A stretch of 64,000 nucleotides of DNA from an uncultured Pirellulales bacterium (GCA_964482555.1 CAYZXY010000001.1:78591-142590); one strand, 5' to 3'; shown: positions 1,639 through 62,458, counted from the stretch's first letter. Made by a program: numbers and translations. The notes: a model not told the origin generated them from the letters alone.

Positions 1639-1745
1639 AGTACGCGTTCCGATTGAATTATTCCGTTTTTGACGGTACGTAATTATGTGCGGATAAAACA
1701 TTTACGCCTGACCCTCCCGGTAGACTTCTACCCGATGGGGTATAA
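1639..1745 (+). repeat. Family-1 structured interspersed repeat (MITE/REP-like), copy 1
   Basis: cagTACGCGTTCCGATTGAATTATTCCGTTTTTGACGGTACGTAATTATGTGCGGATAAAACATTTACGCC...CTACCCGATGGGGTATAA. Aligns end to end with the other copies and lies 12 nt from the tRNA-Thr 3' end. Confidence 0.85.
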
Positions 1746-1757
1746 TGCATACCAGAA

Positions 1758-1829
1758 AGCCAAAGGAGGGAATCGAACCCTCAACCCCAGCTTTACGAAA
1801 GCTGTGCTCTACCGTTGAGCTACTTTGGC
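1758..1829 (-). tRNA. tRNA-Thr (anticodon CGT)
   Basis: Reverse complement reads GCCAAAG TA GCTC AACGGTA GAGC A CAGCT TTCGTAA AGCTG GGGTT GAGGG TTCGATT CCCTC CTTTGGC T. This is a full cloverleaf with a 7-bp acceptor stem, a T-loop TTCGATT and anticodon loop TT-CGT-AA. No encoded CCA. Confidence 0.9.
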
Positions 1830-1945
1830 CTCTCCGGCCCCAAAGCCGGAATTATCATATTATCTGCTTTTTGACCGATGTCAACACCTTTCATCAGGCC
1901 GCTCTGAACAGATACCACTGGTTATGACCGACCTGACCGGCGATG

Positions 1946-3358
1946 TTATTCCTTTTTCGCTTTTTTCTCCGCGGCATCCAGCCCGTTATCCAATACCAGA
2001 TCGGTTAGCGTTTTCAAATCCGGCTGCATACGGATCAATCCCCGGCACTGCTTCACGGCTTGAGCTAGTTGGTCGTCCAACTCCAGCAGCCGCGCCATCA
2101 TTTTCGAATCGCTGAGCGGTTCTGTTTCAAATCTCTCAACATCATCGGATGTTTCGATATCTCCTTTAACCGCCGGTTCCTCTTCCACTGGCGACATCAA
2201 CATCAACTCTTCCATCAGTGCCCTTAGTTCGATTATCTCATCCGGATTGATTGATTCGACAACATCCGGTTCGACACCCCATACCTCAGAATCCGGTTTA
2301 CGATGAACGCAGCGGCCATTGGGCAGATAATAATAATCCGTGGTCAGCTTCAACTGGGCGCCCGAAGCTGGCAATTGTATGATCCGCTGCACCGATCCTT
2401 TCCCCCAGGAACGGTTGCCGACTATAACAGCCCGTCCATGATCTTGCAAAGCGCCCGCCACAATCTCCGATGCGCTGGCGCTGCCTTCATCGATAAGCAC
2501 GACCAGATGAAAACGCGGAAAGGTTCCCTCGGACGTCGCTTCGATCGATTCGCGCCGTGTATGCGCCCCCTTGGTCGAAACGATAACCCCCTCCTCGATA
2601 AAACAGTCCGCCACCTCCGTCGCCGCCGACATCAAGCCGCCGGGATTCAAACGCATATCCAGTATCATGGCCTGCATACCCTGTTCACGTAATTGCTCGA
2701 CGATAGCTGTAAAATCTGACGACGTATTCCCGGTAAATTGCGTAATTCTTACATAACCAATCCCGACATCCCCATCCAGCATATAGTCCCAGGTCCCATC
2801 CTCAAAATTCCGCCGCCAGCCCCGAATCGTGGGAACATGGATTTCCTGACGGGTTATCTCCAGCGTCTCTTCCGATCCGTCTTCATGCAGCACTTTCAGC
2901 TTGACCGTGGTCCCGGCCGGCCCTTTTATCTCCTTGACTGCCCGCGTATCCGACCAGCCTTTGGTCGATTTGCCGTCCACTTCCAGAATAATATCACCCG
3001 CACGGACCCCGGCACGATACGCCGGCGAATGCTCAAAAGGACTGATTACGACCAGATACCCCTCTTTAATATCCAGCCCGATGCCGATGCCTTCATAACT
3101 GCCGCTGGTATGGGCGGTAAACTCCTCCAGCTCTTCCGCCGGAATGTATTCGCTATAGGGATCCAGCTCATGCAGCATGCCGTTGATCGCGCCTGCGACC
3201 AGTTTGGCTTCATCCACTTCGGTAACATAGAATTTTTTCACCAGATCGGTGACATCGACCAGCGGATCGAAAAGACGGTTCGAGGCCGTCAATTTCAGAT
3301 TCAACAGGGTCAAAATCAGGCAGAAAATGATAAAAAAATAGGCAAAACGCTTAGACAC
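1946..3358 (-). CDS. S41 family C-terminal processing peptidase (Ctp/Prc-like, PDZ domain)
   Basis: 470-aa ORF with a GTG start preceded by AGGAG. N-terminal signal/anchor (FAYFFIIFCLILTLLNL). PDZ segment GIGIGLD...SPAYRAGVRAGDIILEVDGKST. S41 catalytic motifs LDMRLNPGG and VLIDEGSASASEIVAGALQD. Confidence 0.9.
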   Translation of the reverse strand: MSKRFAYFFIIFCLILTLLNLKLTASNRLFDPLVDVTDLVKKFYVTEVDEAKLVAGAINGMLHELDPYSEYIPAEELEEFTAHTSGSYEGIGIGLDIKEGYLVVISPFEHSPAYRAGVRAGDIILEVDGKSTKGWSDTRAVKEIKGPAGTTVKLKVLHEDGSEETLEITRQEIHVPTIRGWRRNFEDGTWDYMLDGDVGIGYVRITQFTGNTSSDFTAIVEQLREQGMQAMILDMRLNPGGLMSAATEVADCFIEEGVIVSTKGAHTRRESIEATSEGTFPRFHLVVLIDEGSASASEIVAGALQDHGRAVIVGNRSWGKGSVQRIIQLPASGAQLKLTTDYYYLPNGRCVHRKPDSEVWGVEPDVVESINPDEIIELRALMEELMLMSPVEEEPAVKGDIETSDDVERFETEPLSDSKMMARLLELDDQLAQAVKQCRGLIRMQPDLKTLTDLVLDNGLDAAEKKAKKE

Positions 3359-3383
3359 TTTGCTTGCTCCTGTGGATGAATGT

Positions 3384-3493
3384 TATATAGACTCGTTCCA
3401 TTTGAAATCACCCGTTTATCCCAAACGTAACTATTTCCGATTAAAACCTTTACGACTAGCCCTGGCGGAAATTCTCATACCCTTTGGGTATAT
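3384..3493 (+). repeat. Family-1 interspersed repeat, copy 2 (subfamily B)
   Basis: TTATATAGACTCGTTCCATTTGAAATCACCCGTTTATCCCAAACG...CTTTACGACTAGCCCTGGCGGAAATTCTCATACCCTTTGGGTATA. Confidence 0.85.
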
Positions 3494-3538
3494 TTCTTAA
3501 CGCTTTAACGCAATGGGTTGCGGCTTTTCAACCCTGAA

Positions 3539-4108
3539 TTAATCCCTGATTTTCTGCAGCAGCCACGCCAGATTTTCCCCAAAGCGCGTCAGCGTTTTTA
3601 ATGCTTCCTCATCCTGATTGATCTGCCCCGGCTCCCGAGCCAGCCCCACGTTCCAATATGTCGAACCAACTTGTATCATATCATTGATGGCAAAAAACAT
3701 GGATAGCTGGGCAAAAGTGGAATTATGGCCGGCCCTGCGAGCTATCGCTATCGCCCCGCCTACCTTACGTGATAGAAAATTACCCGCGCGACGCGAGGAA
3801 TATCCCAGCCTGTGCATCAGATTGCAAATTGGGCCTGTCGCACACCCAAAATAAACCGGACTGGCCAGTATTATACCATCAGCGGCTTTGGCCTGCTGGT
3901 AAATATCATCAAAATCATCTTCATGTGCCGTGCAACCGGCACCGTTAACGCAGCCGCCGCAGGCGATACAGGGCTGAATATCCAGTCCACATAACGAAAT
4001 AATCTGAGTCTCAAAGCCGGCTTGAACCAAAGGATCAAGGGCTACCTGGCAGGCTCTGTCTGTGTTTCCACCGGCCCGGGGACTGCCGGATATGGCGATA
4101 ACTTTCAT
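3539..4108 (-). CDS. flavodoxin-fold NAD(P)H-dependent FMN reductase / iron-sulfur flavoprotein family
   Basis: MKVIAISGSPRAGGNTD start typical of the FMN_red/flavodoxin_2 family. Cys cluster CGLDIQPCIACGGC. SD GGGAG upstream of the ATG. Confidence 0.75.
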   Translation of the reverse strand: MKVIAISGSPRAGGNTDRACQVALDPLVQAGFETQIISLCGLDIQPCIACGGCVNGAGCTAHEDDFDDIYQQAKAADGIILASPVYFGCATGPICNLMHRLGYSSRRAGNFLSRKVGGAIAIARRAGHNSTFAQLSMFFAINDMIQVGSTYWNVGLAREPGQINQDEEALKTLTRFGENLAWLLQKIRD

Positions 4109-4347
4109 TGCTCACTCCCACATATAACTAAACGGCTTTCAATTGAGTTTTCGCTTACGGGCGCTTCGTGTTCCAACTTATCTAATCATAAATATTTATA
4201 ATAAAAACGGTTATGCGAGACTATGCCCAAAACCTTTTGTCCGATAAGTTATAAACAAAACTACTCTGTTATCAAAAATCCCTGTGGCAGGGGATATCAT
4301 ATCGGCAGGTTAAACCGGAAGGTCAAAATGATACAAGTATTTAATAA

Positions 4348-4421
4348 TGGTGGCGACTGGATTCGAACCAGTGACCTGCGGGCTATGAATCCGCCGCTCT
4401 AACCACCTGAGCTACGCCACC
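4348..4421 (-). tRNA. tRNA-Met (anticodon CAT; elongator type, a lysidine-modified tRNA-Ile2 cannot be excluded)
   Basis: Reverse complement GGTGGCG TA GCTC AGGTGGTTA GAGC G GCGGA TTCATAG CCCGC AGGTC ACTGG TTCGAAT CCAGT CGCCACC A with encoded CCA. The G1-C72 pair argues against an initiator tRNA. Confidence 0.88.
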
Positions 4422-4580
4422 TGATCGTTTATCTTTCAGGATATCTCACATGCTGCATCTTCCCGAAACAGCATAATATATACTACAAACACCAATATTA
4501 ATATATGAATTTTTTATGGTATATAACTAAGTAATTCACGAACAATATTTATTTTATACAGACAAATCCATAAAATTTTC

Positions 4581-4609
4581 TTGAATATCATACATAAACT
4601 GTGTATATA
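4581..4609 (+). promoter_or_regulatory. candidate sigma70-type promoter in AT-rich spacer
   Basis: TTGAAT - 17 nt - TATATA(AT) in a very AT-rich 250-bp stretch. The nearest downstream + strand gene is the response regulator at 5016, and the transcript would cross Family-1 copy 3. Confidence 0.3.
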
Positions 4610-4681
4610 ATGTAAAGGTAATTTTATTTCAATTAACAAATTATAGTCTTGTTACAGTTTGCGGATTTTCGGCAGTTTGAA

Positions 4682-4791
4682 TTACCTAACCAATCAGGTA
4701 GAAAGCTCCGGGCAGGACCGGGCACAAGCTTTTTTCCGCAATCAATTATGATCCGATAAAACGGGACATTTCAATCGGAATGAGTATATAA
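4682..4791 (-). repeat. Family-1 interspersed repeat, copy 3
   Basis: Plus strand reads TTACCTAACCAATCAGGTAGAAAGCTCCGGGCAGGACCGGGCACAAGCTT...CGGGACATTTCAATCGGAATGAGTATATAA, which is the reverse complement of the family consensus. Confidence 0.85.
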
Positions 4792-5015
4792 GTCCGTCGA
4801 TACGAGTTATATTTCGGCTTACATCAAATCGGGTATGAGTGGCATCAATGACCGAATTTCTGGAGTCAATCGGAGGCGATTCCAGACAGAATTGTATGTC
4901 CTTCTTAACATTTATGGTCAGCCTCTAACTTAAAAATAAATTTTACCCTGGCTGTAATCCCCAATCATATATTTTTTGGGATTATCAAGGTTTTTTTATC
5001 CATCTGGTAATAATT

Positions 5016-5669: not shown

Positions 5670-5708
5670 CCACACACTTAAAATAGCTATTTCTTGTTGC
5701 GGAAACCA

Positions 5709-5793
5709 GTACCGCTGGCATCCTGCCTGCATTCAACCATACTTAAACGTTTAAAAACGGAAAATGTTGTATTATGAGATACGTCAAAAAATG
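5709..5793 (+). repeat. Family-3 element (hairpin + conserved tail), uninterrupted copy
   Basis: GTACCGCTGGCATCCTGCCTGCATT-CAACCATACTTAAACGTTTAAAAA-CGGAAAATGTTGTATTATGAGATACGTCAAAAAATG. Recurs at 18788..18975, where it is split by a Family-1 copy. Confidence 0.7.
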
Positions 5794-6037
5794 TAACCGC
5801 AACAGAAACCGGCTATCAGATTATTAAAATTACCGCCCCGTTTCAGCATTTTTCTTACACCAAATCAGGTTTTTTACTTATTTAATCGGGATCATAACCC
5901 CGTATATAATATAGAAGTAGCTCATATTTAACGCAAAGAATCGCTTCACGTAAAAGCCTGGCGTGGTGGTCTGAGCCCCACAATCCCCGACCGACAGATC
6001 GCTGCGCCAGGAGTTTTCCGGTATGATCCTGTTTACT

Positions 6038-6496
6038 TTAAACGGACTCACATGTTTTCTGCTTAACAAATCCCAGTTGCATCAGTTCATGAAACAGGGC
6101 TTCATATTTTATGGGCTTAATCAGATATGCCTCACAACCGGTGTTAAACGCCTGTAAAATGTTATTCTTATCGCCAAAAGCAGTGGTCATAATAACCCGA
6201 ACACCGTCCAGACCATAAATGCCATGTCTAGCTTCCAAATCCCGGATCTGCTGCAGCGCCTGCTGGCCATCCATTTCCGGCATGGAAATATCCAGCAAAA
6301 TAAAATGATAGGGTTTGTTCTCTTCCAGAGCGGCCTTCACTGCCCGAACGGCCTCCAGACCATTAACCGCTACTGCGCAATCCGCCACATCGGACAGATA
6401 ATCCTGCGTCAATTTACGGGCGGAAAATTCATCTTCCACAATCAGGCATCTCAGATTTTCTTTCACGGGGACAAATCCGCATTGCTCGGCATTCAT
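6038..6496 (-). CDS. single-domain CheY-like response regulator
   Basis: LIVEDEFSARKL...ILLDISMPEMDG...VIMTTAFGD...YLIKP receiver signature. SD AGGAGA 7 nt upstream of the ATG. Confidence 0.88.
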   Translation of the reverse strand: MNAEQCGFVPVKENLRCLIVEDEFSARKLTQDYLSDVADCAVAVNGLEAVRAVKAALEENKPYHFILLDISMPEMDGQQALQQIRDLEARHGIYGLDGVRVIMTTAFGDKNNILQAFNTGCEAYLIKPIKYEALFHELMQLGFVKQKTCESV

Positions 6497-7502: not shown

Positions 7503-7542
7503 ATACGTTGCCGCTCCGGGCGAAATTTCTCATAAAAGGTAT
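7503..7542 (+). repeat. partial Family-1 repeat (3' half only, degenerate)
   Basis: ACGTTGCCGCTCCGGGCGAAATTTCTCATAAAAGGTAT resembles the subfamily-B 3' half TTACGnnTAGCCCTGGCGGAAATTCTCATACCCTTTGGGTAT. Confidence 0.3.
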
Positions 7543-7747: not shown

Positions 7748-7856
7748 TTAATACTCGTTCCAAATTGAAACTCCCGTTGTGTCAGAACGGAATTATGGGC
7801 GGACAAAACACTTACGGATAGCCTCTGGCGGGAGCTTTCATACCCTTTGAGTATAA
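7748..7856 (+). repeat. Family-1 interspersed repeat, copy 4
   Basis: TTAATACTCGTTCCAAATTGAAACTCCCGTTGTGTCAGAACGGAATTATGGGCGGACAAAACACTTACGGATAGCCTCTGGCGGGAGCTTTCATACCCTTTGAGTATAA. Confidence 0.85.
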
Positions 7857-9950: not shown

Positions 9951-10434
9951 ATTGAAATATAAAACTCACAATGGGGATAATTTCACAACAAATAGTGGTA
10001 TAACCAATCGGGTATCCCGAAAGACCTCGGCAATGGCGAAGAATGACCGTATCCTGCTTATTTATAGTAAGTTACGCGATATTAAGGTCGGGAAGTTAAG
10101 CAGGTAACGGTATAAATACAGGACTCATGCTTGCCAGGTAAGTTATGAGACGGTAGAATTAAGGCTTAAGAATTGAATGCGGCATTGAGTCAGATTGCCG
10201 TAAGTCCATGAAATATGAGTGGTTGTTGAATATCAGCCGCAAATCTAATTTCCAACAAATCATTGCTATACTTCAGGTTGGATGTTATTATACCACATAA
10301 AATAAATTCAGATTATGAATCGAGCTGCATGAAAGTGAGCGATGCCAACTTGCAATCTGGAATTATAAGCGATGAAGTGACGTTGATCTCAGGCACAATC
10401 TGACACGGAAGACAACAGTGAAAGGGTTCAATTC

Positions 10435-11569: not shown

Positions 11570-11694
11570 TATGTGCCCAAAGGGTATGAGGATGGCCGCC
11601 AGAGATAAACGTAAGTATATTATTTTCACATATTTACTGTTTTTCAGATGGACGGCGTCATTGGTTTCAAGTATTAAACCGAACGGAGTATAAA
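11570..11694 (-). repeat. Family-1 interspersed repeat, copy 5 (divergent, longer)
   Basis: Plus strand TGTGCCCAAAGGGTATGAGGATGGCCGCCAGAGATAAACGTAAG ... CCGAACGGAGTATAAA. Both termini match the family, the middle has diverged. Confidence 0.6.
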
Positions 11695-16639: not shown

Positions 16640-18604
16640 ATGACAGGAAAACTTCTGAAAATGATCGATTCGCCTGCGGATTTACGTCTGCTGACGATAC
16701 CGCAGTTATTGGAACTGGCCGATGAAATTCGCCAGCTTATCAAAATCTCGGTGAGCCGTAATGGAGGACATCTGGCCAGTAATCTGGGCGTCGTCGAGCT
16801 GACCATCGCCCTGAATTACGTGTTCGATTTCTCATACGACCGGGTCGTCTGGGACGTCGGGCATCAGTGCTACATCCAGAAAATACTTACCGGCCGGAAG
16901 CAGGGCTTCGAGCAGCTACGACAGGCCGGGGGCGTCAGCGGTTTTCCCGATCCGCAGGAGAGCATGTATGACCAGTTTAAGGTTGGACATGCCGGTACGG
17001 CGGTCGCGACGGCGGTCGGACTGGCGATGGGCGCCCAGATGCAGGGAACTGACGAAAAAGTCGTCGCGGTCGTCGGCGACGCCAGCATCGTCAACGGCAT
17101 CTCCTTCGAAGGGCTCAACAACACCGACAAGGTCAAACGACAGCTCCTGATCATCATGAACGACAACTCTATGGCGATCGACAAGACCCAGGGCGCCTTT
17201 GCCCAATATCTCACACGCGTGCGGGTCTCGCGAACCTACGAAGACATCCAGCGACACACACGCCAACTGGTCAAACAACTGCCGGTACTCGGCGGCGCCC
17301 TGCACGATACCATCGACCGCATCAAAGGCGGCATCAAATCGACCCTGCTCAACCAGGGTAAATTCGCCCAGCTCGGCATTCCGTTCTACGGCCCTGTGGA
17401 CGGACACGACCTGGCCAATATGATTACGCTCCTGCGAAACATCAAAGAAGTCGATCACCCGATGATTCTGCATGTCTATACCGAAAAGGGACGCGGTTTC
17501 AACCCCGCCAGCCAGAATCCCACGGCTTTCCACAGCACCAAACCGTTTATCGTGGACGGCGAGACAGTCAGCTTCGCCGAAAGCAGCGACCTGAGCTTTA
17601 CCGCTGCCTTCGCCCACGCCCTGGAAGATGTCATGGCGAAAGATGAGCGCGTCGTCGCGATTACCGCCGCCATGCAGGACGGCACGGGCCTCTCCAAACT
17701 GCGCAATGAATTCCCCAACCGCATCATCGACGTCGGCATCGCCGAAAGCGCCGCTATAGATATCGCCGCCGGCATGGCCAAAACCGGCCTGCGACCCGTC
17801 GTCGCCATTTATTCCACCTTTATGCAGCGGTGTTTCGACCAGATTTTCCAGGAAATGGCCCTGCAGAATCTGCCGGTCGTGCTCTGCATGGATCGGGCAG
17901 GCCTGGTGGGAAATGACGGCGCAACCCATCACGGCTTATGCGATATCGCTATGCTCCGACCGCTGCCGAACATGATACTGATGTCGCCCATGGACGACAA
18001 GGAAATGGCTTTGGCCCTGGATTTCGCCATTCATTCCGAGCAGCCCTGTGCCATCCGCTTTCCGCGCGATGTCGTGCCGCAACTGGATAAACTTTTCCTG
18101 AACTATAAACCGGCTCCCTTCGAACCCGGCAAAGCGGCCACCATCCGCCATGGGAGCGATGTATCGATCATGGCCTACGGCCCGATAACTTTCGATGCCT
18201 ATCTGGCCGCGGAAAGCCTCGCCGCCGACGGCATCGAAGCCGGCGTTATCAGCGGCAGATTCGCCAAACCAGTCGATGAAAATCTGCTGGTCGAATTGCT
18301 GGACAACCGTTTCGATACGCCTCTGATAGTGGTTGATGAGCATTCCGTCATAGGTGGTTTCGGCTCGGCTATTCTGGAAACCGCCCAGCTGCTGCGACTG
18401 GATACCAACCGTATTCATTGCCTCGGCACCCCTGACAGATTCATCGAGCACGACACTCGCAAAAAACAGCTCGAAAAATGCGGCCTGACCCCTCAGCAGA
18501 TTGCCGATTACATCCGGCGGGTTCTCAACCAGAGCGGCAAACGAAAGATAGACGGCAAGTGGCGACTGCCGGTCGAAGCCAAAAAAGACACGCAAAAACA
18601 ATAG
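16640..18604 (+). CDS. dxs: 1-deoxy-D-xylulose-5-phosphate synthase
   Basis: GGHLASNLGVVELTIAL...VWDVGHQCY...GHAGTAVATAVG...VVGDASIVNGISFEGLN (TPP-binding) ...DVGIAESAAIDIAAGMA...GNDGATHHG. SD GAGAGGA upstream. Confidence 0.96.
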   Translation: MTGKLLKMIDSPADLRLLTIPQLLELADEIRQLIKISVSRNGGHLASNLGVVELTIALNYVFDFSYDRVVWDVGHQCYIQKILTGRKQGFEQLRQAGGVSGFPDPQESMYDQFKVGHAGTAVATAVGLAMGAQMQGTDEKVVAVVGDASIVNGISFEGLNNTDKVKRQLLIIMNDNSMAIDKTQGAFAQYLTRVRVSRTYEDIQRHTRQLVKQLPVLGGALHDTIDRIKGGIKSTLLNQGKFAQLGIPFYGPVDGHDLANMITLLRNIKEVDHPMILHVYTEKGRGFNPASQNPTAFHSTKPFIVDGETVSFAESSDLSFTAAFAHALEDVMAKDERVVAITAAMQDGTGLSKLRNEFPNRIIDVGIAESAAIDIAAGMAKTGLRPVVAIYSTFMQRCFDQIFQEMALQNLPVVLCMDRAGLVGNDGATHHGLCDIAMLRPLPNMILMSPMDDKEMALALDFAIHSEQPCAIRFPRDVVPQLDKLFLNYKPAPFEPGKAATIRHGSDVSIMAYGPITFDAYLAAESLAADGIEAGVISGRFAKPVDENLLVELLDNRFDTPLIVVDEHSVIGGFGSAILETAQLLRLDTNRIHCLGTPDRFIEHDTRKKQLEKCGLTPQQIADYIRRVLNQSGKRKIDGKWRLPVEAKKDTQKQ

Positions 18605-18763
18605 GGTGCCTCTAATAATTGCTTTTGAGGCGAAAGCGAAGATTTTTTTCGTCTGACAAGAAATGCAAAACCGGGCATATGGGTGACTATTCACGGTTTT
18701 TCATGACGAAGGCCAGAGGGAAAAATGATCGCTTGCAGCCCAAAATGAATTTTTAGTGGTGCC
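18605..18763 (+). mobile_element. Family-2 MITE-like element, copy A (16-bp imperfect TIRs, 6-bp flanking direct repeat)
   Basis: GGTGCCTCTAATAATT...AATTTTTAGTGGTGCC. About 95% identical to 27068..27226. Flanked on both sides by CAATAG (18599..18604 and 18764..18769). The left CAATAG contains the dxs stop codon. Confidence 0.75.
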
Positions 18764-18787
18764 CAATAGTTATTATCGCGGAATCAT

Positions 18788-18975
18788 GTACCGCAGGCAT
18801 CCTGCCTGCATTTATACTCGTTCCAATTTAATATTACCGTTTTGCCCAAACGCAACTATTTTCGGGCAAAGCCTTTACGATTGGCCCTGGCGGGGATTCT
18901 CATACCCTTTGGGTTTAACCACGCTCAAACATCTGAAAGCGGAAAATGTTGAATTATGAGATACGTCAAAAAATG
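18788..18975 (+). repeat. Family-3 element interrupted by a Family-1 copy (nested insertion)
   Basis: GTACCGCAGGCATCCTGCCTGCATT | Family-1 copy | AACCACGCTCAAACATCTGAAAGCGGAAAATGTTGAATTATGAGATACGTCAAAAAATG. Colinear with 5709..5793 apart from the insert. Confidence 0.75.
18813..18917 (+). repeat. Family-1 interspersed repeat, copy 6 (subfamily B), nested in Family-3
   Basis: TATACTCGTTCCAATTTAATATTACCGTTTTGCCCAAACGCAACTATTTTCGGGCAAAGCCTTTACGATTGGCCCTGGCGGGGATTCTCATACCCTTTGGGTTTA. Confidence 0.85.
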
Positions 18976-18994
18976 CCGCAGCAGCAGATCCTGG

Positions 18995-19050
18995 TTATCC
19001 ACACAGAACAATCATTGTAATGGCCTTCTGAAAAAACACTTACAATGATT
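18995..19050. promoter_or_regulatory. perfect DnaA-box 9-mer plus 11-bp perfect inverted repeat upstream of the peroxiredoxin gene
   Basis: TTATCCACA at 18995..19003. AATCATTGTAA (19010..19020) and TTACAATGATT (19040..19050) are exact reverse complements separated by 19 nt. Confidence 0.3.
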
Positions 19051-20585: not shown

Positions 20586-21641
20586 TCAAAACAACGACGG
20601 CTCCTCATCGACCGCATCCTCATCCTGCGGTTCCGGCTTCTCCGGCGGCATTATGCCCAGATGCTCATACGCTCGTGCCGTCGCGACCCGCCCCTGCCGG
20701 GTCCGGGCGATAAAACCGATCTGAAGCAGATACGGCTCGACCACATCCTCCAGCGTATCGCGTTCTTCGCCCAGTGTAGCCGCCAGCGCCTCAATCCCTG
20801 CCGGTCCGCCGTCATAAACCTTTATCAAGGCGTTCAACATCGACCGGTCCAGTTGATCCAGTCCCAGACCGTCAATTTCCTCTATCTTCAGCGCCGCCTG
20901 GGCCATCTTTTCATTTATAACCCCCTCGCCGTGTACCTGGGCATAATCCCGCACCCGCCGCAACAGTCGATTCGCCACCCGTGGCGTCCCCCGGCTGCAA
21001 GAACTGATCAGATCGATCGCCAACTCATCACACGGAATCCGCAGCAGACGCGCTGACCGCGCGACACATTGTCCCAGATGCTCCCGAGACCAGAACTCCA
21101 GATGATGCTGTATCCCGAACCTCGCCCGCAACGGCGAAGTGATCAGCCCCGCCCGCGTCGTCGCCCCCAGCAGCGTAAACGCCTGCAGAGGTATATTGAT
21201 TGTCTTGGCATGCATGCCGCTATCGACCGTAAAATCTACCTTGAAATCCTCCATCGCCGGATAAATAAACTCCTCCACCGTCACCGGCAGCCGGTGAATC
21301 TCATCAATAAACAGCACATCTCCCTGCTGCAGATTCGTCAGCACCCCCATCAGGTCACCCGGTCGCACCAGTGCCGGCCCGCTGGTCGCCTTGATATTCA
21401 CACCCATCTCATGAGCAATCACATAGGCGATCGTCGTCTTACCTAAGCCGGGCGGCCCATGCAGCAGCGTATGTTCCATTGGCTCGTTTCGCTGCTTCGC
21501 CGCCGTAATCGCAATCCGCAGCTTCTCGATCAGCTTTTCCTGACCGATACACTCCTCCAGCGACGTCGGCCGCAACGTTAGATCGTACCGGTCCTCATCC
21601 TGCCCTTGAGCATTCGCATCTATGATTCGTTCTCGTGTCAT
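20586..21641 (-). CDS. ruvB: Holliday junction branch-migration helicase RuvB
   Basis: LRPTSLEECIGQEKL...LLHGPPGLGKTTIA (Walker A)...VLFIDEIHRL (Walker B)...GATTRAGLITSPLRARFG...GTPRVANRLLRRVRD. No ruvA adjacent. Confidence 0.96.
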   Translation of the reverse strand: MTRERIIDANAQGQDEDRYDLTLRPTSLEECIGQEKLIEKLRIAITAAKQRNEPMEHTLLHGPPGLGKTTIAYVIAHEMGVNIKATSGPALVRPGDLMGVLTNLQQGDVLFIDEIHRLPVTVEEFIYPAMEDFKVDFTVDSGMHAKTINIPLQAFTLLGATTRAGLITSPLRARFGIQHHLEFWSREHLGQCVARSARLLRIPCDELAIDLISSCSRGTPRVANRLLRRVRDYAQVHGEGVINEKMAQAALKIEEIDGLGLDQLDRSMLNALIKVYDGGPAGIEALAATLGEERDTLEDVVEPYLLQIGFIARTRQGRVATARAYEHLGIMPPEKPEPQDEDAVDEEPSLF

Positions 21642-21651
21642 AAAAAACCAA

Positions 21652-21760
21652 TTTATACCCCATTGGGGAGAAAGCTCCCGGCAGGGCCGGGCGTAAGCTT
21701 TTTATTCGCAGATAATTACGTTCCGACAAAACGGATATTTTCTATCGGAACGAGTATTAA
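21652..21760 (-). repeat. Family-1 interspersed repeat, copy 7
   Basis: Plus strand TTTATACCCCATTGGGGAGAAAGCTCCCGGCAGGGCCGGGCGTAAGCTTTTTATTCGCAGATAATTACGTTCCGACAAAACGGATATTTTCTATCGGAACGAGTATTAA. Starts 11 nt upstream of the ruvB start codon. Confidence 0.88.
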
Positions 21761-21807
21761 TATTAAAAATAAAAAAACATGAGCTTTGATATTGGACTTT
21801 TTCATTT

Positions 21808-22041
21808 TTATTCCTCCATCTCCCCTTTCTCTTTCGAAACGCCCCCTTCCAGCCATTCCTCATAACGCGCCCGTGTCCGCTTGATCCGTTTGGGCATAAA
21901 ATCCTTATGGATCTTATTCTCGTACAAATCCACCTGAAACGACAGGTTTTTCTCCATAATCTCCCGTAACGCATCCACACCCTCCGACATCGCTAAAACC
22001 GCTGCCTTCAGTTCCTTCATCTCTTGATTATTCTGCTCCAT
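21808..22041 (-). CDS. hypothetical 77-aa charged/helical protein
   Basis: MEQNNQEMKELKAAVLAMSEGVDALREIMEKNL... SD GGGAGA 8 nt upstream of the ATG. No recognisable family. Confidence 0.35.
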   Translation of the reverse strand: MEQNNQEMKELKAAVLAMSEGVDALREIMEKNLSFQVDLYENKIHKDFMPKRIKRTRARYEEWLEGGVSKEKGEMEE

Positions 22042-22230
22042 GATTCATCTCCCATATTCCAGTAGATTAATAGTGCCTCCAATGGGTCATACATTGCCAC
22101 TATTCACGTTCCATTCTCTCTTAATCATCTATAAGATTCTATAAAATCTCGTCATGTTAATAAACAAAAATCCTCACTATCCTCAGGAATACCCCTTCAC
22201 GTATATAGTCCGGGGATGGATTTTTGTTAT

Positions 22231-22308
22231 ATATACTCGTTTCGATTGAATTTACCCGTTTTGTCGGAACCTAATCATGTACGGAGCTTTCCACCCGATT
22301 GGGTATAG
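22231..22308 (+). repeat. Family-1 interspersed repeat, copy 8 (about 30-nt internal deletion)
   Basis: ATATACTCGTTTCGATTGAATTTACCCGTTTTGTCGGAACCTAATCATGTACGGAGCTTTCCACCCGATTGGGTATA. Lies 34 nt beyond the znuC stop. Confidence 0.8.
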
Positions 22309-22341
22309 TTCTTGCTGCGGTACATGTCTACACAACAAGAA

Positions 22342-23109
22342 CTATCTATGCTGTGTCACATTTCCGTCATGTTGATGGCAGATTAAATGCTGCTGAAACT
22401 CACCGAAATATTGTGTCATGTTGTCGGATTGGCAGAACTCGTCAAAGGAGCCATAATAAACCAGCTTCCGATCAAGATAAAGCAGTTTCGTCGCGTATTC
22501 GCCGATCGTCGTACTGTCGTGACTGATTAGCATGATGGTCGTACCCTGTTGCCGGTGCAGTTTCGTGGTGATCTCGTAGAACTGGTTACGGGCTATCGGA
22601 TCGAGCGCCAGAATCGGTTCATCCAGGACCAGCAACTCCGGGCGAGATACCAGCGCCCGAGCCAAAAGCACCCGCTGCCGCTGGCCGCCGGAAAGCCGGC
22701 CAATGAATTTATCCTTCAGTCCGGAGATCCCAAGCAGCTCCAGCGTATCTCTGACGGATTCCATATCAGCGCGGGTAATCCAGCGGGGAAACTGCTTCCG
22801 GCATATCAGCCCCGTCGCCACGATTTCCGCGACTTTAGCAGGAAAGCGGTGCGTGGGAATGGATGTGCTCTGCGGCAGATACCCGATTCGTGCCCACTGG
22901 TTGAATCCGTCCAGCCTCTGGTCAAACAGTTTGATCTCACCATTAGATTTTTCGACAAGCCCGAGCAGGGCCTTAACCAGTGTCGATTTACCCGAACCGT
23001 TAGGTCCGACAATCCCCAGATATTCGCCCGCCTCCAGGTCAAAGCTGATATTATCCAGCACGGTCGATTGCTGATATTTTACGCTGAGCTGATTGACTGA
23101 AACGATCAT
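22342..23109 (-). CDS. znuC: metal (zinc-type) ABC transporter ATP-binding protein
   Basis: GIVGPNGSGKSTL (Walker A), LSGGQRQRVLLARAL (signature), LLVLDEP (Walker B). Start overlaps the znuA stop (ATGA). Confidence 0.85.
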   Translation of the reverse strand: MIVSVNQLSVKYQQSTVLDNISFDLEAGEYLGIVGPNGSGKSTLVKALLGLVEKSNGEIKLFDQRLDGFNQWARIGYLPQSTSIPTHRFPAKVAEIVATGLICRKQFPRWITRADMESVRDTLELLGISGLKDKFIGRLSGGQRQRVLLARALVSRPELLVLDEPILALDPIARNQFYEITTKLHRQQGTTIMLISHDSTTIGEYATKLLYLDRKLVYYGSFDEFCQSDNMTQYFGEFQQHLICHQHDGNVTQHR

Positions 23110-24764: not shown

Positions 24765-24869
24765 TTATACGCGTTTCGATTGAAATTGCCCGTTTTATCA
24801 GAACGTAATTTTTGCGGATAATACACTTACGCCCGACCTTGCCAAAAATTTCTACCCAACAGGGTATAA
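24765..24869 (+). repeat. Family-1 interspersed repeat, copy 9
   Basis: TTATACGCGTTTCGATTGAAATTGCCCGTTTTATCAGAACGTAATTTTTGCGGATAATACACTTACGCCCGACCTTGCCAAAAATTTCTACCCAACAGGGTATAAA. Lies between the dnaA stop and the zur promoter. Confidence 0.85.
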
Positions 24870-26311: not shown

Positions 26312-26802
26312 GTTGGACTCAGAAAATTCTGGTAACCAATTGCAAATACTAAAATGAAGCGAAGTTAACGAACGAACCGGCAGACCCGGATACCATTACG
26401 TATGACCAATTTTCCTATCCAGCTTGTATCAACCGTAATAAAAAAGGATGTGCTATGATATTGAAATGCCGCAATATGTGCAGTCACGTAGTTCATATAA
26501 ATTCAAAACCTTTGTCCGCGCAAAACACTTGTGATGCATGATTATCCCCCTCCCTGGGGCAGGTAAGGCTATTGAGGTACGCGTCCATGCGTGAATATCA
26601 CTCAAAGCTCAATACATAACGGAAATTACTGAAAAACGAGCGAATGGCTCATTTGTGCCGCATAAATCCGCTGAAACTCTTTTCCTGGCAAAATGGCTTT
26701 GCATCCGATTTCGCCTTTGAAGTTTATAGATTCGAAGTGGATCTGTCAAACGAAAATACCTTATCAATTTTTAATTGCTCCAGTAGCTTATAAATAACTT
26801 TT

Positions 26803-26908
26803 CTATATTTGTTCCGATTGTAATTGTCCGTTTTACCAGGCCGTTATTTTGTGCAGATAATACACTAAAGCTCGGCCCTGACAGAAACTTTTTACACGAG
26901 GGGTAAAC
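26803..26908 (+). repeat. Family-1 interspersed repeat, copy 10 (divergent)
   Basis: CTATATTTGTTCCGATTGTAATTGTCCGTTTTACCAGGCCGTTATTTTGTGCAGATAATACACTAAAGCTCGGCCCTGACAGAAACTTTTTACACGAGGGGTAAAC. Confidence 0.7.
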
Positions 26909-27067
26909 AATGACCATTTAGCAGCGTTTATGATTTTTTCATAATCAATGTATCAGTGCGATTTCGCTCTTTTTTTGTGGTATCTTTAACGGATGAGGCT
27001 TTACAGAGCCTTTTGACCAGCAACTCAAGATGTTTTGGAGTATTCGATCACTTATTCGAGAGTTAAG

Positions 27068-27226
27068 GGTGCCTCTAATAATTGCTTTTGAGGCGAAAGC
27101 GAAGATTTTTTTCGTCTAACAAGAAATGGAAAACCGGGCATATTGGTATATATTCACGGTTTTTCATGACGAAGGCCAGAAGGAAAAAAGATCGCTTGCA
27201 GCCCAAAATGAATTTTTAGAGGTACC
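27068..27226 (+). mobile_element. Family-2 MITE-like element, copy B
   Basis: GGTGCCTCTAATAATTGCTTTTGAGGCGAAAGCGAAG...CCCAAAATGAATTTTTAGAGGTACC. TIR GGTGCCTCTAATAATT vs reverse complement GGTACCTCTAAAAATT. Flanks TTAAG / TTAAA. Confidence 0.75.
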
Positions 27227-27804
27227 TTAAATAATATCATCGGGCTTTAAAGGCCCGGCGGAACGCTAAAGCGTTATCAAAAAATGCAAAAGTTAAGTAT
27301 CATTTGGAACACGGCAAAAACTTCAACCTTTCCGAAAATCTGTCATGCCTGGAAATGGTTAGGCTTTCTGGCCAGACATGTTAGCGAGAGGGTGTTACAT
27401 AATTGCGGTCCGGGCCTCCTGCTCGCGCAAGTCATTGCGACATGGGCATTTTGCCCATGCAATGAGCGGTTACATCGACCTCCTGCTCATGGTGTGTATA
27501 TCAAAACTGAAAATGGCAATGCCATTAAGAATGAGCCAACCAGAATGATCAATCAATAACGAGTGAATATTTGTCACATTCCTGAAGGCAATTTGCCATT
27601 GCGGAAAACATATCCCGAACATGAATATTGTCAGACTTTCGATACCATATATTGTATGTATATCATTTGAACATTGCTTATTATGTGTGAGTGAAACACC
27701 AGAACGTTCACATAAAATGCGAAAGTTAACTGGGCATACATGCAAAAAAATTGTTCAAAGCCGCTCTGATACTCAAACATCAGGTCCAACCGCTGTATCA
27801 AAAA

Positions 27805-27911
27805 TATACACGGTCGGGCAGAAGGCTCCGGGCAGGGCCAGGCGTAAGCTTTTTATCCGCAGACAATTACGTTCCGACAAAATGGGGATTTCAATCGAAA
27901 CGAGGTATACA
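27805..27911 (-). repeat. Family-1 interspersed repeat, copy 11
   Basis: Plus strand TATACACGGTCGGGCAGAAGGCTCCGGGCAGGGCCAGGCGTAAGCTTTTTATCCGCAGACAATTACGTTCCGACAAAATGGGGATTTCAATCGAAACGAGGTATACA. Forms an inverted pair with copy 12. Confidence 0.85.
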
Positions 27912-27977
27912 TAACAAAAAATATCTCATTTTTTTATGCCTGCCAGGCATCAGCATTCGTGTCGCATAAAATAAGAA

Positions 27978-28006
27978 TTGACTTGGAAGCCCGCAATTCG
28001 TATTAT
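27978..28006 (+). promoter_or_regulatory. candidate sigma70-type promoter between the inverted Family-1 pair
   Basis: TTGACT - 17 nt - TATTAT. Confidence 0.35.
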
Positions 28007-28156
28007 GAACGGTTTATCCGAGGCTGTCGTAACATGATCAGTCGCTGGTAATCGTAAAAATAATGTATGTGATTATTCACAGACAAAGCCCTTCACGTAA
28101 AGTGAGGAGGTGGTTTATGCTGAAATTGTGATTTCCCCGTTTTTGCAGCGGGGCTT

Positions 28157-28263
28157 TTATACTCGTTCCGATTGAAAATACCCGTTTTGTCGGAACGTAA
28201 TTGTCTGCGGATAAAAAGCTTACGCTTGGCCTTGCCCGGAGCTTTTTACCCAATTGGGCATAA
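28157..28263 (+). repeat. Family-1 interspersed repeat, copy 12 (close to consensus)
   Basis: TTATACTCGTTCCGATTGAAAATACCCGTTTTGTCGGAACGTAATTGTCTGCGGATAAAAAGCTTACGCTTGGCCTTGCCCGGAGCTTTTTACCCAATTGGGCATAAA. Confidence 0.9.
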
Positions 28264-28329
28264 AACACAATTGAACGAAATTCTGTGAATAGTAACCAAT
28301 AAATCTATTTGACTTGAACGAGGAAGCCG

Positions 28330-29088
28330 TTGGCGTCATACGCAATAATATCCGATATTCATTCCAATCTTTCGGCATTATCGGCAGTGCTGGATGATAT
28401 TACCGCACGAGGGGTCGAAGAAGTATTCTGTTTGGGCGATATCGTCGGCTATGGTCCCCAGCCCCGTGAATGTCTGGACCTGATCATCGAACGCAAGATC
28501 ATCAGTATTATGGGGAATCATGACCACGCCGTCTTTTATGAACCGACCAATTTCAACACCGGTGCCGAGCGGGCCAGCTACTGGACCCGCCGGATTCTCG
28601 AAGAAGAGCCGGACCGCGAAAAACGAAATCAGCGATGGTCGTTCCTGGGCCGTCTGCCGTTGCGGATTCAGATGGGCAACGTCCTCTTGGTCCATGGCTC
28701 GCCGCGCCGTCCGGTAAATGAATATATTTTTCCTGATGATATTTATACGAATAACACCAAGCTTCTGGCGATTTTTGAAAAAGTCGATCATATTTGTTTT
28801 GTAGGGCATACCCATGTACCGGGCGTTTTCCTGGAAGACCCGGATTTTTACGGTATCGATGAGCTTGACTATCATTACCCGATTATCGATTCGGAAAAGG
28901 CGATTATTAATGTCGGCAGTGTGGGCCAGCCGCGGGACCAGGATACCCGGGCCAGCTATGTCGTCGTCAGCGACGACAAGGTCGAGTTCGTTCGCGTGGA
29001 ATATGACGTCGAAAAGACGGCAGATATGATACTCGCCAATCCTCATCTGGATAACTTTGAGGGGGAACGTTTACGTGAAGGACGCTAA
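28330..29088 (+). CDS. metallophosphoesterase (calcineurin-like, YfcE/MJ0936-type)
   Basis: TTG start. ISDIHSN, LGDIVGYGP, GNHD, LVHGSP and GHTH are the five metallophosphatase motifs in order. Confidence 0.87.
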   Translation: MASYAIISDIHSNLSALSAVLDDITARGVEEVFCLGDIVGYGPQPRECLDLIIERKIISIMGNHDHAVFYEPTNFNTGAERASYWTRRILEEEPDREKRNQRWSFLGRLPLRIQMGNVLLVHGSPRRPVNEYIFPDDIYTNNTKLLAIFEKVDHICFVGHTHVPGVFLEDPDFYGIDELDYHYPIIDSEKAIINVGSVGQPRDQDTRASYVVVSDDKVEFVRVEYDVEKTADMILANPHLDNFEGERLREGR

Positions 29089-33860: not shown

Positions 33861-33966
33861 TAATACCCAAAGGGTATGCCCCCCGCCAGGGCCAACCGTT
33901 AGTGTTTTATCCGCAATTAATTAAGTCTGGACAAAACGAGAAAATTTCATCGGAGTGAGTATATAA
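33861..33966 (-). repeat. Family-1 interspersed repeat, copy 13 (subfamily B)
   Basis: Plus strand TAATACCCAAAGGGTATGCCCCCCGCCAGGGCCAACCGTTAGTGTTTTATCCGCAATTAATTAAGTCTGGACAAAACGAGAAAATTTCATCGGAGTGAGTATATAA. Confidence 0.85.
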
Positions 33967-45469: not shown

Positions 45470-45556
45470 CTGGAATGGGTGGCATACTTACCTGATACCT
45501 GAGCGCAGCGACAAAACTTACGCCCTGCCCGGAGCTTTCTATCCAATTGAGTATAA
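45470..45556 (+). repeat. Family-1 repeat, truncated/degenerate copy (good 3' half)
   Basis: ...GCAGCGACAAAACTTACGCCCTGCCCGGAGCTTTCTATCCAATTGAGTATAA. Confidence 0.6.
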
Positions 45557-48387: not shown

Positions 48388-48668
48388 TGCGTTTATGCGA
48401 AATGGTTGTACCGAGGGCATCCTGCCCTTGATTAGATATTGGGTACCGTGAACGGTCACAAATTCCGAAAGATGAACAGTCACAACTCTTTGCTCCATAG
48501 AGTTTTTCCGACATTTCCTTTATGGATGTCATCGCCGATATGCCGAAACAACCCCCCGGAGCATATTTTCGACATTCTTCATTCGCCCTTGATTCATCAT
48601 TCTGGTTTCGTCATTCGTAATGTCATTGCTATTTTGTGCAAGTTTATTCCCATAAGAGACTAACTCCT

Positions 48669-50452: not shown

Positions 50453-50561
50453 TGTTTACCGCTTCCAAATGAAATGTTTCGTTTTGTCAGAAGACATACT
50501 CATATTTCTTTATAATGGACTATATTTGACCTTTTTAAACTTCAGACTTTGAGATTTTCCC

Positions 50562-52919: not shown

Positions 52920-53024
52920 TATACTCGTTTCGATTGAAGAACCCGTTTTGTCCAAACGTAACTCTTTGCGGGCAAAACCTTTACGGCTGGCCCTGGCGGG
53001 AAGTCTCATACCTTTTGGGTATAA
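52920..53024 (+). repeat. Family-1 interspersed repeat, copy 14 (subfamily B), inside the polysaccharide operon
   Basis: TATACTCGTTTCGATTGAAGAACCCGTTTTGTCCAAACGTAACTCTTTGCGGGCAAAACCTTTACGGCTGGCCCTGGCGGGAAGTCTCATACCTTTTGGGTATAA. Begins 19 nt after the wzy-like stop and ends 2 nt before ATG 53027. Confidence 0.88.
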
Positions 53025-55239: not shown

Positions 55240-55398
55240 ATTATGTTGAAACGATTTATCAAAGATGTTCCCTGGTTAAATAGTATTCCTTTTTCAACTT
55301 AAGTTTCGCATTTTTTGCGAGCGTTTTGACGTTCCGCAGGGTCTTTTCCTGAAATGTTATCACCATAAAAAGTATGAAATCGCACTTCGAGTTACGTT

Positions 55399-57594: not shown

Positions 57595-57606
57595 GAGGAG
57601 GATCGA

Positions 57607-58626: not shown

Positions 58627-58632
58627 GCTGTC

Positions 58633-60324: not shown

Positions 60325-60464
60325 ATTAGCCGGAACGCCCAGAAAAAAAATATTCACATTATTTCAACTATTCGATAATGCAAAATGGTTGTTATTTTCG
60401 ATAGATAGTATTGGAGTTTTGAGGCTATGTTGACCAGGGGAATACCAAAAGCATACGTGGGAGT

Positions 60465-61859
60465 ATGAAAAAGAATATGAATTCGAAAAAATACATTCTG
60501 TTTTTAAGCCATTATTTTTATCCTGAGGGAAATGCCCCCGCGGCTCGCGTCTATGAGATGGCCCGCCAATGGGTCCGGGAAGGCCATCAGGTCACCGTCA
60601 TCACCAGCAATCCCAATGTGCCCAACGGCGTCGTCTATCCCGGTTATCGCAATGGCTGGAAACAAAAAGAATGCATTGACGGTATTGATGTGATTCGAGT
60701 CTGGACGCATATTGCGCCGAATCGCGGCGTTATCCGCCGGATACTGAATTATCTGTCATTTATGTTGACCGCGGTTCTGGCCGCGATGTCGGTCCGGAGG
60801 CCCGATCTGATCATTACGACGAGTCCGCAGTTTTTCTGCGGGTTCGCCGGCGTTATCCTGAAAAAACTTTTCCGGATACCATTCATCCTGGAAATCCGCG
60901 ACCTGTGGCCCGAATCGATCAGCGTCCTCGGAGCTATTCGCAACCAGTTTATTATCGGACCCCTTGAGTGGCTCGAAAAAACAATGTATAAAACCGCCGA
61001 TCATATCGTGATTGTCAGTCGGGCGTTCCAGGATCATATTATCGCCCGGGGCGGCAAACCGGACTGCATATCCACCATTACCAACGGCGTCGATCTCGAC
61101 GAGTTTTACCCACGTGCCAACGACCATCTTTTACGTAAGCAGTACCATCTGAATGGTGAGTTCGTTTGTGCCTATATCGGCACTATCGGCATGGCTTCTG
61201 GTCTTGAAGTGGCGCTGGAGGCGGCTCGCATTCTGCGTCAACGCGACCTGCGCCATATCAAATTAATGTTAGTCGGCGATGGTGCCATTCGAGATGACTT
61301 ACAGCGACAGGCCAGAAACGAGAATCTGGATAATATCATTTTTACCGGCCGGCAGGATAAAAACCAGATTCCCGAATATCTGGCCAGTTCCGACGTTTGC
61401 CTGGTACATCTAAAACGAAACGATCTCTTTAAGCTGGTGATTCCTTCCAAAATTTTCGAAGCGGCCGCCATGGCCCGCCCCATCGTTCTGGGCGTGGAAG
61501 GTTATGCCGCACGGCTGCTGGAATTATCGGGCGCTGGCTGCTGCATCGAACCCGAAAATGCCGAACAACTGGTTAATACGCTGACTTATCTGGCGGATAA
61601 TCCGGCAGAAAGAACCCAAATGGGAATAGCGGGCCGTCAATACGTCACGAAATATTTCAACCGCGCAACGCTGGCGATGGATTTTCTGCAATTAATCCAG
61701 ACTCTCCTGGAATCGCGTTCCATGAAACCCGGAACAACCCCAGGCTGCTCTGATCAACCCGCTCCCATCCAGCTTTCCATTCCTGTTTTCCGCGTTCGCG
61801 AGCCCGTTTTCCGAGATATGATCGAGAAAACTCCCGGTCGAACCGTGCAGAACGTCTGA
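60465..61859 (+). CDS. glycosyltransferase family 4, WbuB/WcaI-like, with ~70-aa C-terminal tail
   Basis: ILFLSHYFYPEGNAPAARVYEMA..., TSPQFF, ...VIPSKIFEAAAMARPIVLG. Start is 60465 or 60477. Confidence 0.86.
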   Translation: MKKNMNSKKYILFLSHYFYPEGNAPAARVYEMARQWVREGHQVTVITSNPNVPNGVVYPGYRNGWKQKECIDGIDVIRVWTHIAPNRGVIRRILNYLSFMLTAVLAAMSVRRPDLIITTSPQFFCGFAGVILKKLFRIPFILEIRDLWPESISVLGAIRNQFIIGPLEWLEKTMYKTADHIVIVSRAFQDHIIARGGKPDCISTITNGVDLDEFYPRANDHLLRKQYHLNGEFVCAYIGTIGMASGLEVALEAARILRQRDLRHIKLMLVGDGAIRDDLQRQARNENLDNIIFTGRQDKNQIPEYLASSDVCLVHLKRNDLFKLVIPSKIFEAAAMARPIVLGVEGYAARLLELSGAGCCIEPENAEQLVNTLTYLADNPAERTQMGIAGRQYVTKYFNRATLAMDFLQLIQTLLESRSMKPGTTPGCSDQPAPIQLSIPVFRVREPVFRDMIEKTPGRTVQNV

Positions 61860-61875
61860 AATCCCTCCCACAACT

Positions 61876-61904
61876 TGACGATTTGGAATACTCCCGGTAA
61901 AATT
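61876..61904 (+). promoter_or_regulatory. near-consensus sigma70-type promoter upstream of the PEP-CTERM mini-ORF
   Basis: TTGACG - 17 nt - TAAAAT. Confidence 0.4.
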
Positions 61905-62135
61905 GAAGTGAATAGTAAGTTGAACCTGCCTATAATGGAGTGACACCAGCAAAAAGCCAGCCGGATGCATCAGGGTCGCACCGGTGGGGTCTGTGAATCA
62001 TTTAATGTTCTATCTCATTGTATAAAAATGATTTATGACTCCACTTCTCACGGATGCGATTCTAAATAAGTGGGTGTGACCGGCCTGAAACTATTACAGA
62101 AATAATGTTTTATCGGGGGAACAGGGAGTTGAGTT

Positions 62136-62330
62136 ATGAGCAGCTATCTCGGTATGGTAATGGGCTCTGTTGTTATGCTGATCAATCAGTGCGGTTTTTA
62201 TCCCCTTAATCCTTTCATATTCCATTGTCAGTTAAAATTTTCTCTGGCAAGTATTCCCGAGCCGACGGCTATTCTGGTCCTGCTTTTGGGGGTGCCGTTT
62301 CTTTTACTCCGCCGAAAATCCCGAAGATAG
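62136..62330 (+). CDS. 64-aa protein consisting of little more than a PEP-CTERM sorting signal (possibly a gene remnant)
   Basis: C-terminus SIPEPTAILVLLLGVPFLLLRRKSRR = PEP motif + TM helix + Arg/Lys cluster. SD AGGGAG 9 nt upstream of the ATG. N-terminus MSSYLGMVMGSVVMLINQCG is signal-like. Confidence 0.45.
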   Translation: MSSYLGMVMGSVVMLINQCGFYPLNPFIFHCQLKFSLASIPEPTAILVLLLGVPFLLLRRKSRR

Positions 62331-62343
62331 CTTATTCCGCATA

Positions 62344-62458
62344 TTTCTAACCAATGGGGTAGAAATCTCCCGGCAGGTCTGGACGTAAGCTTCTTATCCG
62401 CAGACAATTACGTTCCGAAAATCGGGGATTTTCAATCGGAACGAGTATGCTGCAATTC
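62344..62458 (-). repeat. Family-1 interspersed repeat, copy 15
   Basis: Plus strand TTTCTAACCAATGGGGTAGAAATCTCCCGGCAGGTCTGGACGTAAGCTTCTTATCCGCAGACAATTACGTTCCGAAAATCGGGGATTTTCAATCGGAACGAGTAT. Confidence 0.85.

Follow-up and report, generated by a model that had tools for sequence, protein, structure and literature searches.

An abundant intergenic repeat of an uncultured bacterium, probably a TA-inserting miniature transposon

A 64-kb stretch of DNA from an uncultured Pirellulales bacterium (GCA_964482555.1, CAYZXY010000001.1:78591-142590, hereafter the window) carries between its genes so many copies of a repeat of about a hundred nucleotides, here called Family-1, that its nature must be asked: is it a mobile element, a structured RNA, a protein-binding site or a local duplication? 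We iterated the consensus proposed by an earlier sequence-only reading of the window into an nhmmer profile and searched the whole window with it. The profile recovered 14 full-length copies of ~100-105 nt (E 1e-30 to 4e-13), one of which (at 22233) has an internal deletion. Besides these it found 3 fragments that are clear and one or two relics that are weak. Family-1 occupies 2.4% of the whole window; of the non-coding DNA alone it occupies 11%. All 17 copies and fragments lie within the non-coding 22% of the window, with no overlap with curated genes that have family support, and they occur on both strands without relation to the direction of adjacent genes. The hairpin-1 pattern of the repeat alone matched 5 times, compared with 0.01 matches expected from shuffles. 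The dense, interspersed, intergenic repeat in both orientations described by the sequence-only reading was thus borne out by the profile, as were its two subfamilies (A and B). The profile found all 15 copies it had called full, but only 14 are full length, that near 11570 comprising the 3′ two-thirds only. Among its partial copies, that at 45470 was recovered as a 3′ half (45500-45555, E 4.5e-8) and that at about 10006 scored weakly (E 0.3-5), and those at 7503 and 13232 received no statistical support from family or subfamily profiles.

How the repeat reached its sites can be read from a subfamily B copy at 18.8 kb, both flanks of which recur elsewhere in the window without it. A repeat finder aligned both flanks of the filled site (18813-18917) with the region 5688-5817 (+ strand), the left one along 46 nt (83% identity, E 1.3e-5) and the right one along 86 nt (79% identity, E 9e-14). 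The two matches lie side by side there; at 18.8 kb they stand 101 nt plus TA apart. The filled site reads CTGCATT-TA-[TAC...GGGTT]-TA-ACCAC, with one TA at 18813-18814, the 101-nt element TAC...GTT at 18815-18915 and the second TA at 18916-18917. Its uninterrupted paralogue reads CTGCATT-CA-ACCAT, the target position being TA in the filled site against CA in the empty one. When 101 nt and one TA were excised in silico, the junction aligned without a gap, with 17 identical bases to its left. We therefore conclude that the pair records an insertion, or equivalently a precise excision, at a TA that was duplicated, and that the junction fixes the boundaries of the element at 5′-TAC...GTA-3′, about 101 nt. 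Amongst 13 full copies, TA stands to the left of 8-9 and to the right of 11, with T at position −2 in 10 and A at +1 in 9, an insertion context that is T-rich to the left and A-rich to the right; 2 copies lie directly after terminator-like hairpins, within the T-tails of these hairpins. The short inverted termini TATAC...GTATA, already seen by the sequence-only reading, are contiguous, and the two ends of the consensus agree at 16 of 25 positions. In subfamily A, the terminal inverted match extends to 7-10 of 15 positions, compared with ~4 in shuffles.

We consider it likely that Family-1 is a non-autonomous mini-transposon, or MITE (miniature inverted-repeat transposable element), that inserts at TA and was moved in trans. 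Bacterial MITEs are recognized by a length below 200 bp, terminal inverted repeats (TIRs) of 4-24 bp, 5′-TA-3′ termini and a target-site duplication (PMC2229807). Family-1 is 101 nt long, occurs in many dispersed copies and encodes no protein of its own, open reading frames (ORFs) that overlap its copies having no Pfam match. Its contiguous TIR of ~5 bp, though weak, falls within the published 4-24 bp, its termini are 5′-TA-3′ at the frequencies given above, and a target duplication is seen in the single pair of 18813-18917 and 5688-5817. Its small size, its TA ends, its short TIR, the duplicated TA and the scatter of its copies between genes in either orientation thus together point to a bacterial MITE (PMC2229807).

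By analogy with IS630/Tc1-mariner-type elements, RUP, ERIC and Correia, the element would insert at TA dinucleotides in AT-rich intergenic DNA and duplicate the TA. A transposase encoded elsewhere, or since lost, would recognize the short imperfect inverted ends, cut at the TAC/GTA ends and paste the excised element into TA; the same analogy suggests that this enzyme was IS630/Tc1-mariner-like. The internal palindromes would be an inheritance from master copies. The present copies would be old and decaying, presumably no longer moving, and would survive only between genes, where insertion is harmless. Their strictly intergenic location may be attributed to selection against insertions in genes together with the AT-rich target.

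Several observations weigh against this account. No transposase with matching ends was seen in the 64-kb window, and, as the sequence-only reading had stated, gene calls and Pfam revealed no transposase, RAYT or TnpA gene there at all. The inverted repeats are weak, those of subfamily B being at chance level beyond TAC/GTA. The filled/empty pair is a single case, and its empty member has CA instead of TA; the TA duplication is formally indistinguishable from a TA borne by the element, or, in the 18.8-kb case, from a 3-bp TTA duplication. Finally, copies that are 12-45% diverged retain their length, which is somewhat unexpected for purely neutral bacterial DNA.

That last observation is also the starting point for a modified account, in which copies have been co-opted as terminators, mRNA-processing sites or protein-binding sites, or were moved by a transposase of other than IS630 type. 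Length is kept at ~30% divergence; some copies directly follow terminator-like hairpins, and one ends 12 nt before a start codon. Subfamily A has both a near-DnaA box and a bidirectional hairpin-plus-T-run, and three copies lie upstream of dnaA. We regard the modified account as unlikely.

Transposition as a single strand, by an element mobilized by RAYT like REP/REPIN sequences or derived from IS200/IS605, with subterminal hairpins recognized on one strand, would account for the hairpin near the left end, the hairpins or palindrome near the right end, the very weak inverted termini, and the high density of copies that are only intergenic. It is distinctly unlikely, however, since the gapless junction at 18.8 kb requires a duplicated TA: had the element gone in 3′ of a TATA-type target and duplicated nothing, the empty site would be short by 2 nt. 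Nor do the mismatches within the hairpins show any strand asymmetry (G·U 16, A·C 26), and the hairpins are not kept in subfamily B. The element, at ~101 nt, is also far from the 20-40 nt of a REP, and the window lacks the RAYT or TnpA gene that such an element would use.

The hairpins also raise the question of whether Family-1 is a functional structured RNA, comprising either small RNA genes or cis-acting hairpins for mRNA termination, stability or processing, spread across the genome. Compared with shuffled sequences, subfamily A copies fold well (z −3.2 to −4.4) and form the three hairpins proposed by the sequence-only reading, several copies stand at gene ends, and the antisense strand of subfamily A presents a GC-rich hairpin followed by TTTTT. 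The known MITEs ERIC and Correia affect mRNA in such ways (PMC2229807). In subfamily B, on the other hand, folding is no better than that of shuffles (z about −1) and another hairpin is preferred; the claimed hairpins are palindromes of the consensus that are strong only in subfamily A. In alignments of 13 and then 19 copies, 69-70% of cells could pair, leaving ~30% unpaired, compared with 68-69% in column shuffles. The measures of covariation were equalled by 27-112 of 500 shuffles, and the covariation score by 36-112, which is not significant and falls well inside the stated false-positive range of the tool. Three folds were examined for covariation in both alignments, namely the three earlier hairpins, an alternative hairpin TTTTGYC/GRYAAAA and a closing stem TATACTCG/TGGGTATA, and none gave a significant result. 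In the outer stem of hairpin 2, a change from C-G to U-A is the only double change that recurs; it splits the two subfamilies and is probably a single event, and the neighboring pairs are broken in most copies.

These measurements divide the claims of the sequence-only reading. That the repeat is structured holds insofar as subfamily A folds better than shuffles, but a selected fold is unsupported by pairing and covariation, and a conserved three-hairpin structure was not confirmed, given that subfamily B does not keep it and that covariation is no higher than in controls. The G-T changes it took as a sign of one folding strand fail likewise: amongst departures from the Watson-Crick pairs of the consensus, A·C (26) is commoner than G·U (16), and thus no folding strand is favored. 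In keeping with its remark that it recognized no Rfam family here, Rfam 15 returned no match over any copy either at the gathering score or at E ≤ 5. A promoter and terminator scan showed no consistent promoter within the copies. Sense, antisense, upstream and downstream placements, as well as placements in operons, occur without pattern, and the family is absent from three relatives over the ~55 kb described below. We find no sign of a conserved structured RNA, and the RNA explanation is quite improbable.

Dispersed DNA sites for a protein such as DnaA or a nucleoid protein, kept for chromosome organization or regulation, are a further candidate. The element contains TTATCCGCA, a DnaA box with one mismatch (at 1688, 24813, 27853, 28206, 33907 and 62394), and 6 of the 22 such near-boxes in the window lie inside copies; three copies occupy the 2-kb gap upstream of dnaA, and lengths are retained despite 30% divergence. 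One-mismatch boxes are nevertheless common by chance (12.9 expected in the window), and subfamily B has TGCGGGCAA or TTCGGGCAA at the corresponding position, so that the motif is not kept and its presence in the element is probably coincidence. Copies are moreover spread all over the window and onto unrelated contigs, and we hold this explanation to be very improbable.

The reading of Family-1 as a MITE carries expectations about its age and its spread beyond the window. Pairwise identity between copies averages 70% and reaches at most 88%, with two subfamilies, and by this measure the copies are old, none in the window looking recently transposed. Because one reading frame of the element is free of stops in many copies, we searched protein collections with translations of the repeat, and recovered spurious ORFs that carry translated copies; these lie on three further NCBI contigs (of 44, 68 and 100 kb), on two Logan contigs and on an ENA contig. 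The Logan contigs, both from run SRR7048224, hold 4 copies in 10.2 kb adjoining groESL (L034) and 3 copies in 2.3 kb (L035), and the ENA contig (L036, ERZ27237542) holds 1 copy plus a fragment. At 1213-1327 of L035, an insertion of ~11 nt (CCCGATATCCTTCGGGAT, a small hairpin) in the 3′ part of the copy gives a length variant absent from the window. Logan contigs from runs SRR7048221-4 agree with the window at 99.95-100% identity. Of 14 distinct Logan contig ends, 3 lie within copies none of whose 31-mers recurs in the window, which indicates near-identical k-mers elsewhere in the genome. Contigs that end within copies include L020 and L021, at 3488 (copy 3389-3492), and L031, at 21698 (copy 21654-21757).

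In three relatives whose RuvB is 74-77% identical, sampled as five ruvB loci (L022-L026) of which two locus pairs are near-duplicates, nhmmer found no match to Family-1 at E ≤ 10 in ~55 kb of distinct sequence. Plasmid and phage collections likewise gave no match, and the central pattern of the repeat had 0 matches in a JGI metagenome scan; a scan of viral contigs gave 0 as well. The one metagenome match of the 5′ pattern (L033) agrees only in the part covered by the pattern (13 bits) and was taken as chance. Scans of genome collections with two repeat patterns returned, among the matches listed, none and 19 single matches in unrelated taxa, which the profile marks as chance. With copies on other contigs and none in the ~55 kb from relatives or in the plasmid, phage, viral-contig and metagenome collections, Family-1 is thus genome-wide yet confined to a narrow lineage. 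That the repeat is a mere local oddity, a segmental duplication of intergenic DNA confined to this region, has next to no probability: although the window does hold other local repeats, such as a 161-nt one (94% identity) and 135-nt paralogous segments, Family-1 copies have sharp common ends and unrelated flanks, and their occurrence on unrelated contigs (near groEL and other genes), besides the three other NCBI contigs, already contradicts it.

The individual copies illustrate the range of settings in which Family-1 is found (E values from nhmmer). From the left, a full copy at 1641-1744 (+, E 5.6e-26) lies between the stop of a transglutaminase-like gene and the 3′ end of tRNA-Thr, neighbors identified by Pfam and a tRNA call. 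Full copies of subfamily B at 3389-3492 (+, E 2.4e-23), between the start of ctpA and the stop of the upstream gene, and at 7751-7855 (+, E 1.2e-24), in a divergent promoter region, bracket a subfamily A copy at 4687-4787 (−, E 2.6e-23) between tRNA-Met and a LuxR-type response regulator. At 9999-10076 (−) lies a possible decayed relic in which the terminal palindrome alone is recognizable, and at 11574-11637 (−, E 1.4e-9, model positions 39-102) the 3′ two-thirds copy lies between mreB and mreC, antisense to the operon. The copy that gave the filled site (18814-18916 in the profile alignment, +, E 7.4e-24) begins directly 3′ of a terminator-like hairpin at 18793-18809. Further along, a subfamily A copy at 21654-21757 (−, E 1.3e-30, fold z −4.4) has its 3′ end 12 nt upstream of the ruvB start codon. 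The internally deleted copy follows at 22233-22307 (+), where model positions 1-104 span only 75 nt in the nhmmer alignment; in the full element the missing 29 nt lie exactly between two direct repeats of CGGA, a pattern that slippage or microhomology deletion would be expected to leave.

A full copy at 24767-24868 (+, E 2.1e-23) separates the start of a Fur-like gene from the stop of dnaA. Upstream of dnaA stand the most diverged full copy, at 26805-26903 (+, E 1.7e-20, 54-75% identity to other copies), and two of subfamily A, at 27805-27904 (−, E 1.7e-25) in the dnaA-upstream gap and at 28159-28262 (+, E 2e-30) directly 3′ of a terminator-like hairpin at 28135-28153. These last two point apart with 254 nt between them and are 86% identical overall, with a 41-nt identical block (27842-27882 and 28185-28225) that may reflect local gene conversion. 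In the remainder of the window are full copies of subfamily B at 33863-33962 (−, E 2e-22), upstream of rmlC, and at 52921-53023 (+, E 1.7e-26), 20 nt past the stop of a polymerase-like gene in a same-strand gene cluster. The 3′ half at 45500-45555 (+, model positions 44-104) lies in the polysaccharide gene cluster, a short 5′ fragment at 50457-50492 (+, E 0.006) that was also grouped by the repeat finder adds to the copies listed by the sequence-only reading, and a full copy of subfamily A at 62348-62448 (−, E 2.9e-26) lies downstream of a glycosyltransferase gene.

The genes of the window include dnaA, yidC, ruvB, mreBCD, dxs, a flagellin gene and a polysaccharide gene cluster. Named homologues of its RuvB come from metagenome-assembled genomes of Sedimentisphaerales, Phycisphaerae and Planctomycetes, the nearest 85% and the next 74-79% identical, and on these names and identities the host would belong to a poorly sampled Phycisphaerae (Sedimentisphaerales-like) lineage of the Planctomycetota. 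In the three relatives, ruvC, ruvA and ruvB are contiguous (L022-L026); in the region 20586-22342 of the window, ruvB is alone with two Family-1 copies directly upstream, and these copies may mark a rearrangement breakpoint.

Other repeats lie close to Family-1. A second repeat of 161 nt occurs at 18603-18763, where it begins at the dxs stop codon, and again at 27066-27226, upstream of dnaA, the two being 94% identical; within it lies a terminator-like hairpin, TTGCTTTTGAGGCGAAAGCGA, with a T-run after it, and Rfam gave no match. The 2-kb gap between dnaA and the next gene (26312-28330) is a patchwork of repeats, holding three Family-1 copies, the 161-nt repeat and two short repeats whose reverse complements lie elsewhere in the window (27249-27298 with 55297-55346, and 27510-27567 with 48578-48635). 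This gap showed no clear clustering of perfect DnaA boxes, and GC skew over the window gave no usable origin signal for comparing copy orientation with replication. The region 5688-5817 and, minus the insertion, 18767-18999 form a paralogous segment of ~135 nt; both retain a hairpin GCWGGCATCCTGCCTGC as well as the beginning of a very short ORF (MRYVKKC..., at 5774 and 18956), and the segment may represent a small gene, a leader or a further repeat.

As far as we searched, the sequence of Family-1 is previously undescribed, while the kind of element is well known. In the literature searched, no paper names MITEs along with Phycisphaerae or Sedimentisphaerales, and there is one incidental co-mention with Planctomycetes. 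The remark of the sequence-only reading that the repeat is no recognized family survives for Rfam and for the plasmid and phage collections, but the TA duplication, the most informative feature and one that this reading had overlooked, places the repeat in the known class of TA-type MITEs. TA-inserting MITEs that occupy ~2% of a genome are already known from Neisseria, pneumococci and enterobacteria, and Family-1 represents no new kind of system. Logan contigs end inside copies, so Family-1 breaks short-read assemblies of this organism. The stop-free frame, which in many copies reads ...SERNxLRIKSLRLALPG... (for example at 28157-28264), has led gene callers to add spurious small proteins, and N-terminal extensions that are false, to public databases (P0123-P0128); in the window, the TTG start at 52934 is probably a case of the latter. 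A Family-1 model would improve annotation of Phycisphaerae genomes, knowledge of the family is useful for annotating and assembling this lineage, and the exact insertion boundaries offer a handle for tracing the responsible transposase.

Comparison with known repeats sets Family-1 in context. REP/BIME and REPIN sequences are, like Family-1, abundant intergenic palindromic repeats that break short-read assemblies, but REPs are 20-40 nt long, cause no TA duplication, form characteristic inverted pairs and come with a RAYT gene, none of which is seen for Family-1. Correia/NEMIS elements of Neisseria share with Family-1 high density (~2% of the genome), TA duplication, intergenic location often beside gene starts and stops, and internally deleted variants. 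Assignment to Correia/NEMIS was nonetheless set aside on TIR length, which is 24-26 bp in Correia and ~5 bp contiguous in Family-1; Correia elements also have an IHF site, and no such motif was identified in Family-1. A short resemblance of Family-1 to Correia (CCGCAGACA) is probably due to chance.

ERIC/IRU (RU-1) and RU-3 of enterobacteria differ from Family-1 in sequence and host, and ERIC transcripts have documented effects on mRNA stability. Like Family-1, however, they are imperfect palindromes over their whole 100-130 bp. Their contiguous TIRs are very short (7 and 4 bp), they end in TA and duplicate a TA target, and they are found in either orientation and can contain ORFs (PMC2229807). 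RUP, a MITE of Streptococcus pneumoniae associated with IS630-Spn1, has ends that resemble that insertion sequence, whereas Family-1 is without a known partner; RUP copies are highly similar and thought to have been recently mobile, compared with the 12-45% divergence of Family-1, and with hosts of different phyla sequence similarity is not expected. In its architecture RUP is nevertheless like Family-1, measuring 107 bp compared with 101 nt plus TA, inserting at TA with short TIRs (9 bp contiguous in RUP) and 5′-TA-3′ termini, and lying between genes in around a hundred or more copies (PMC2229807).

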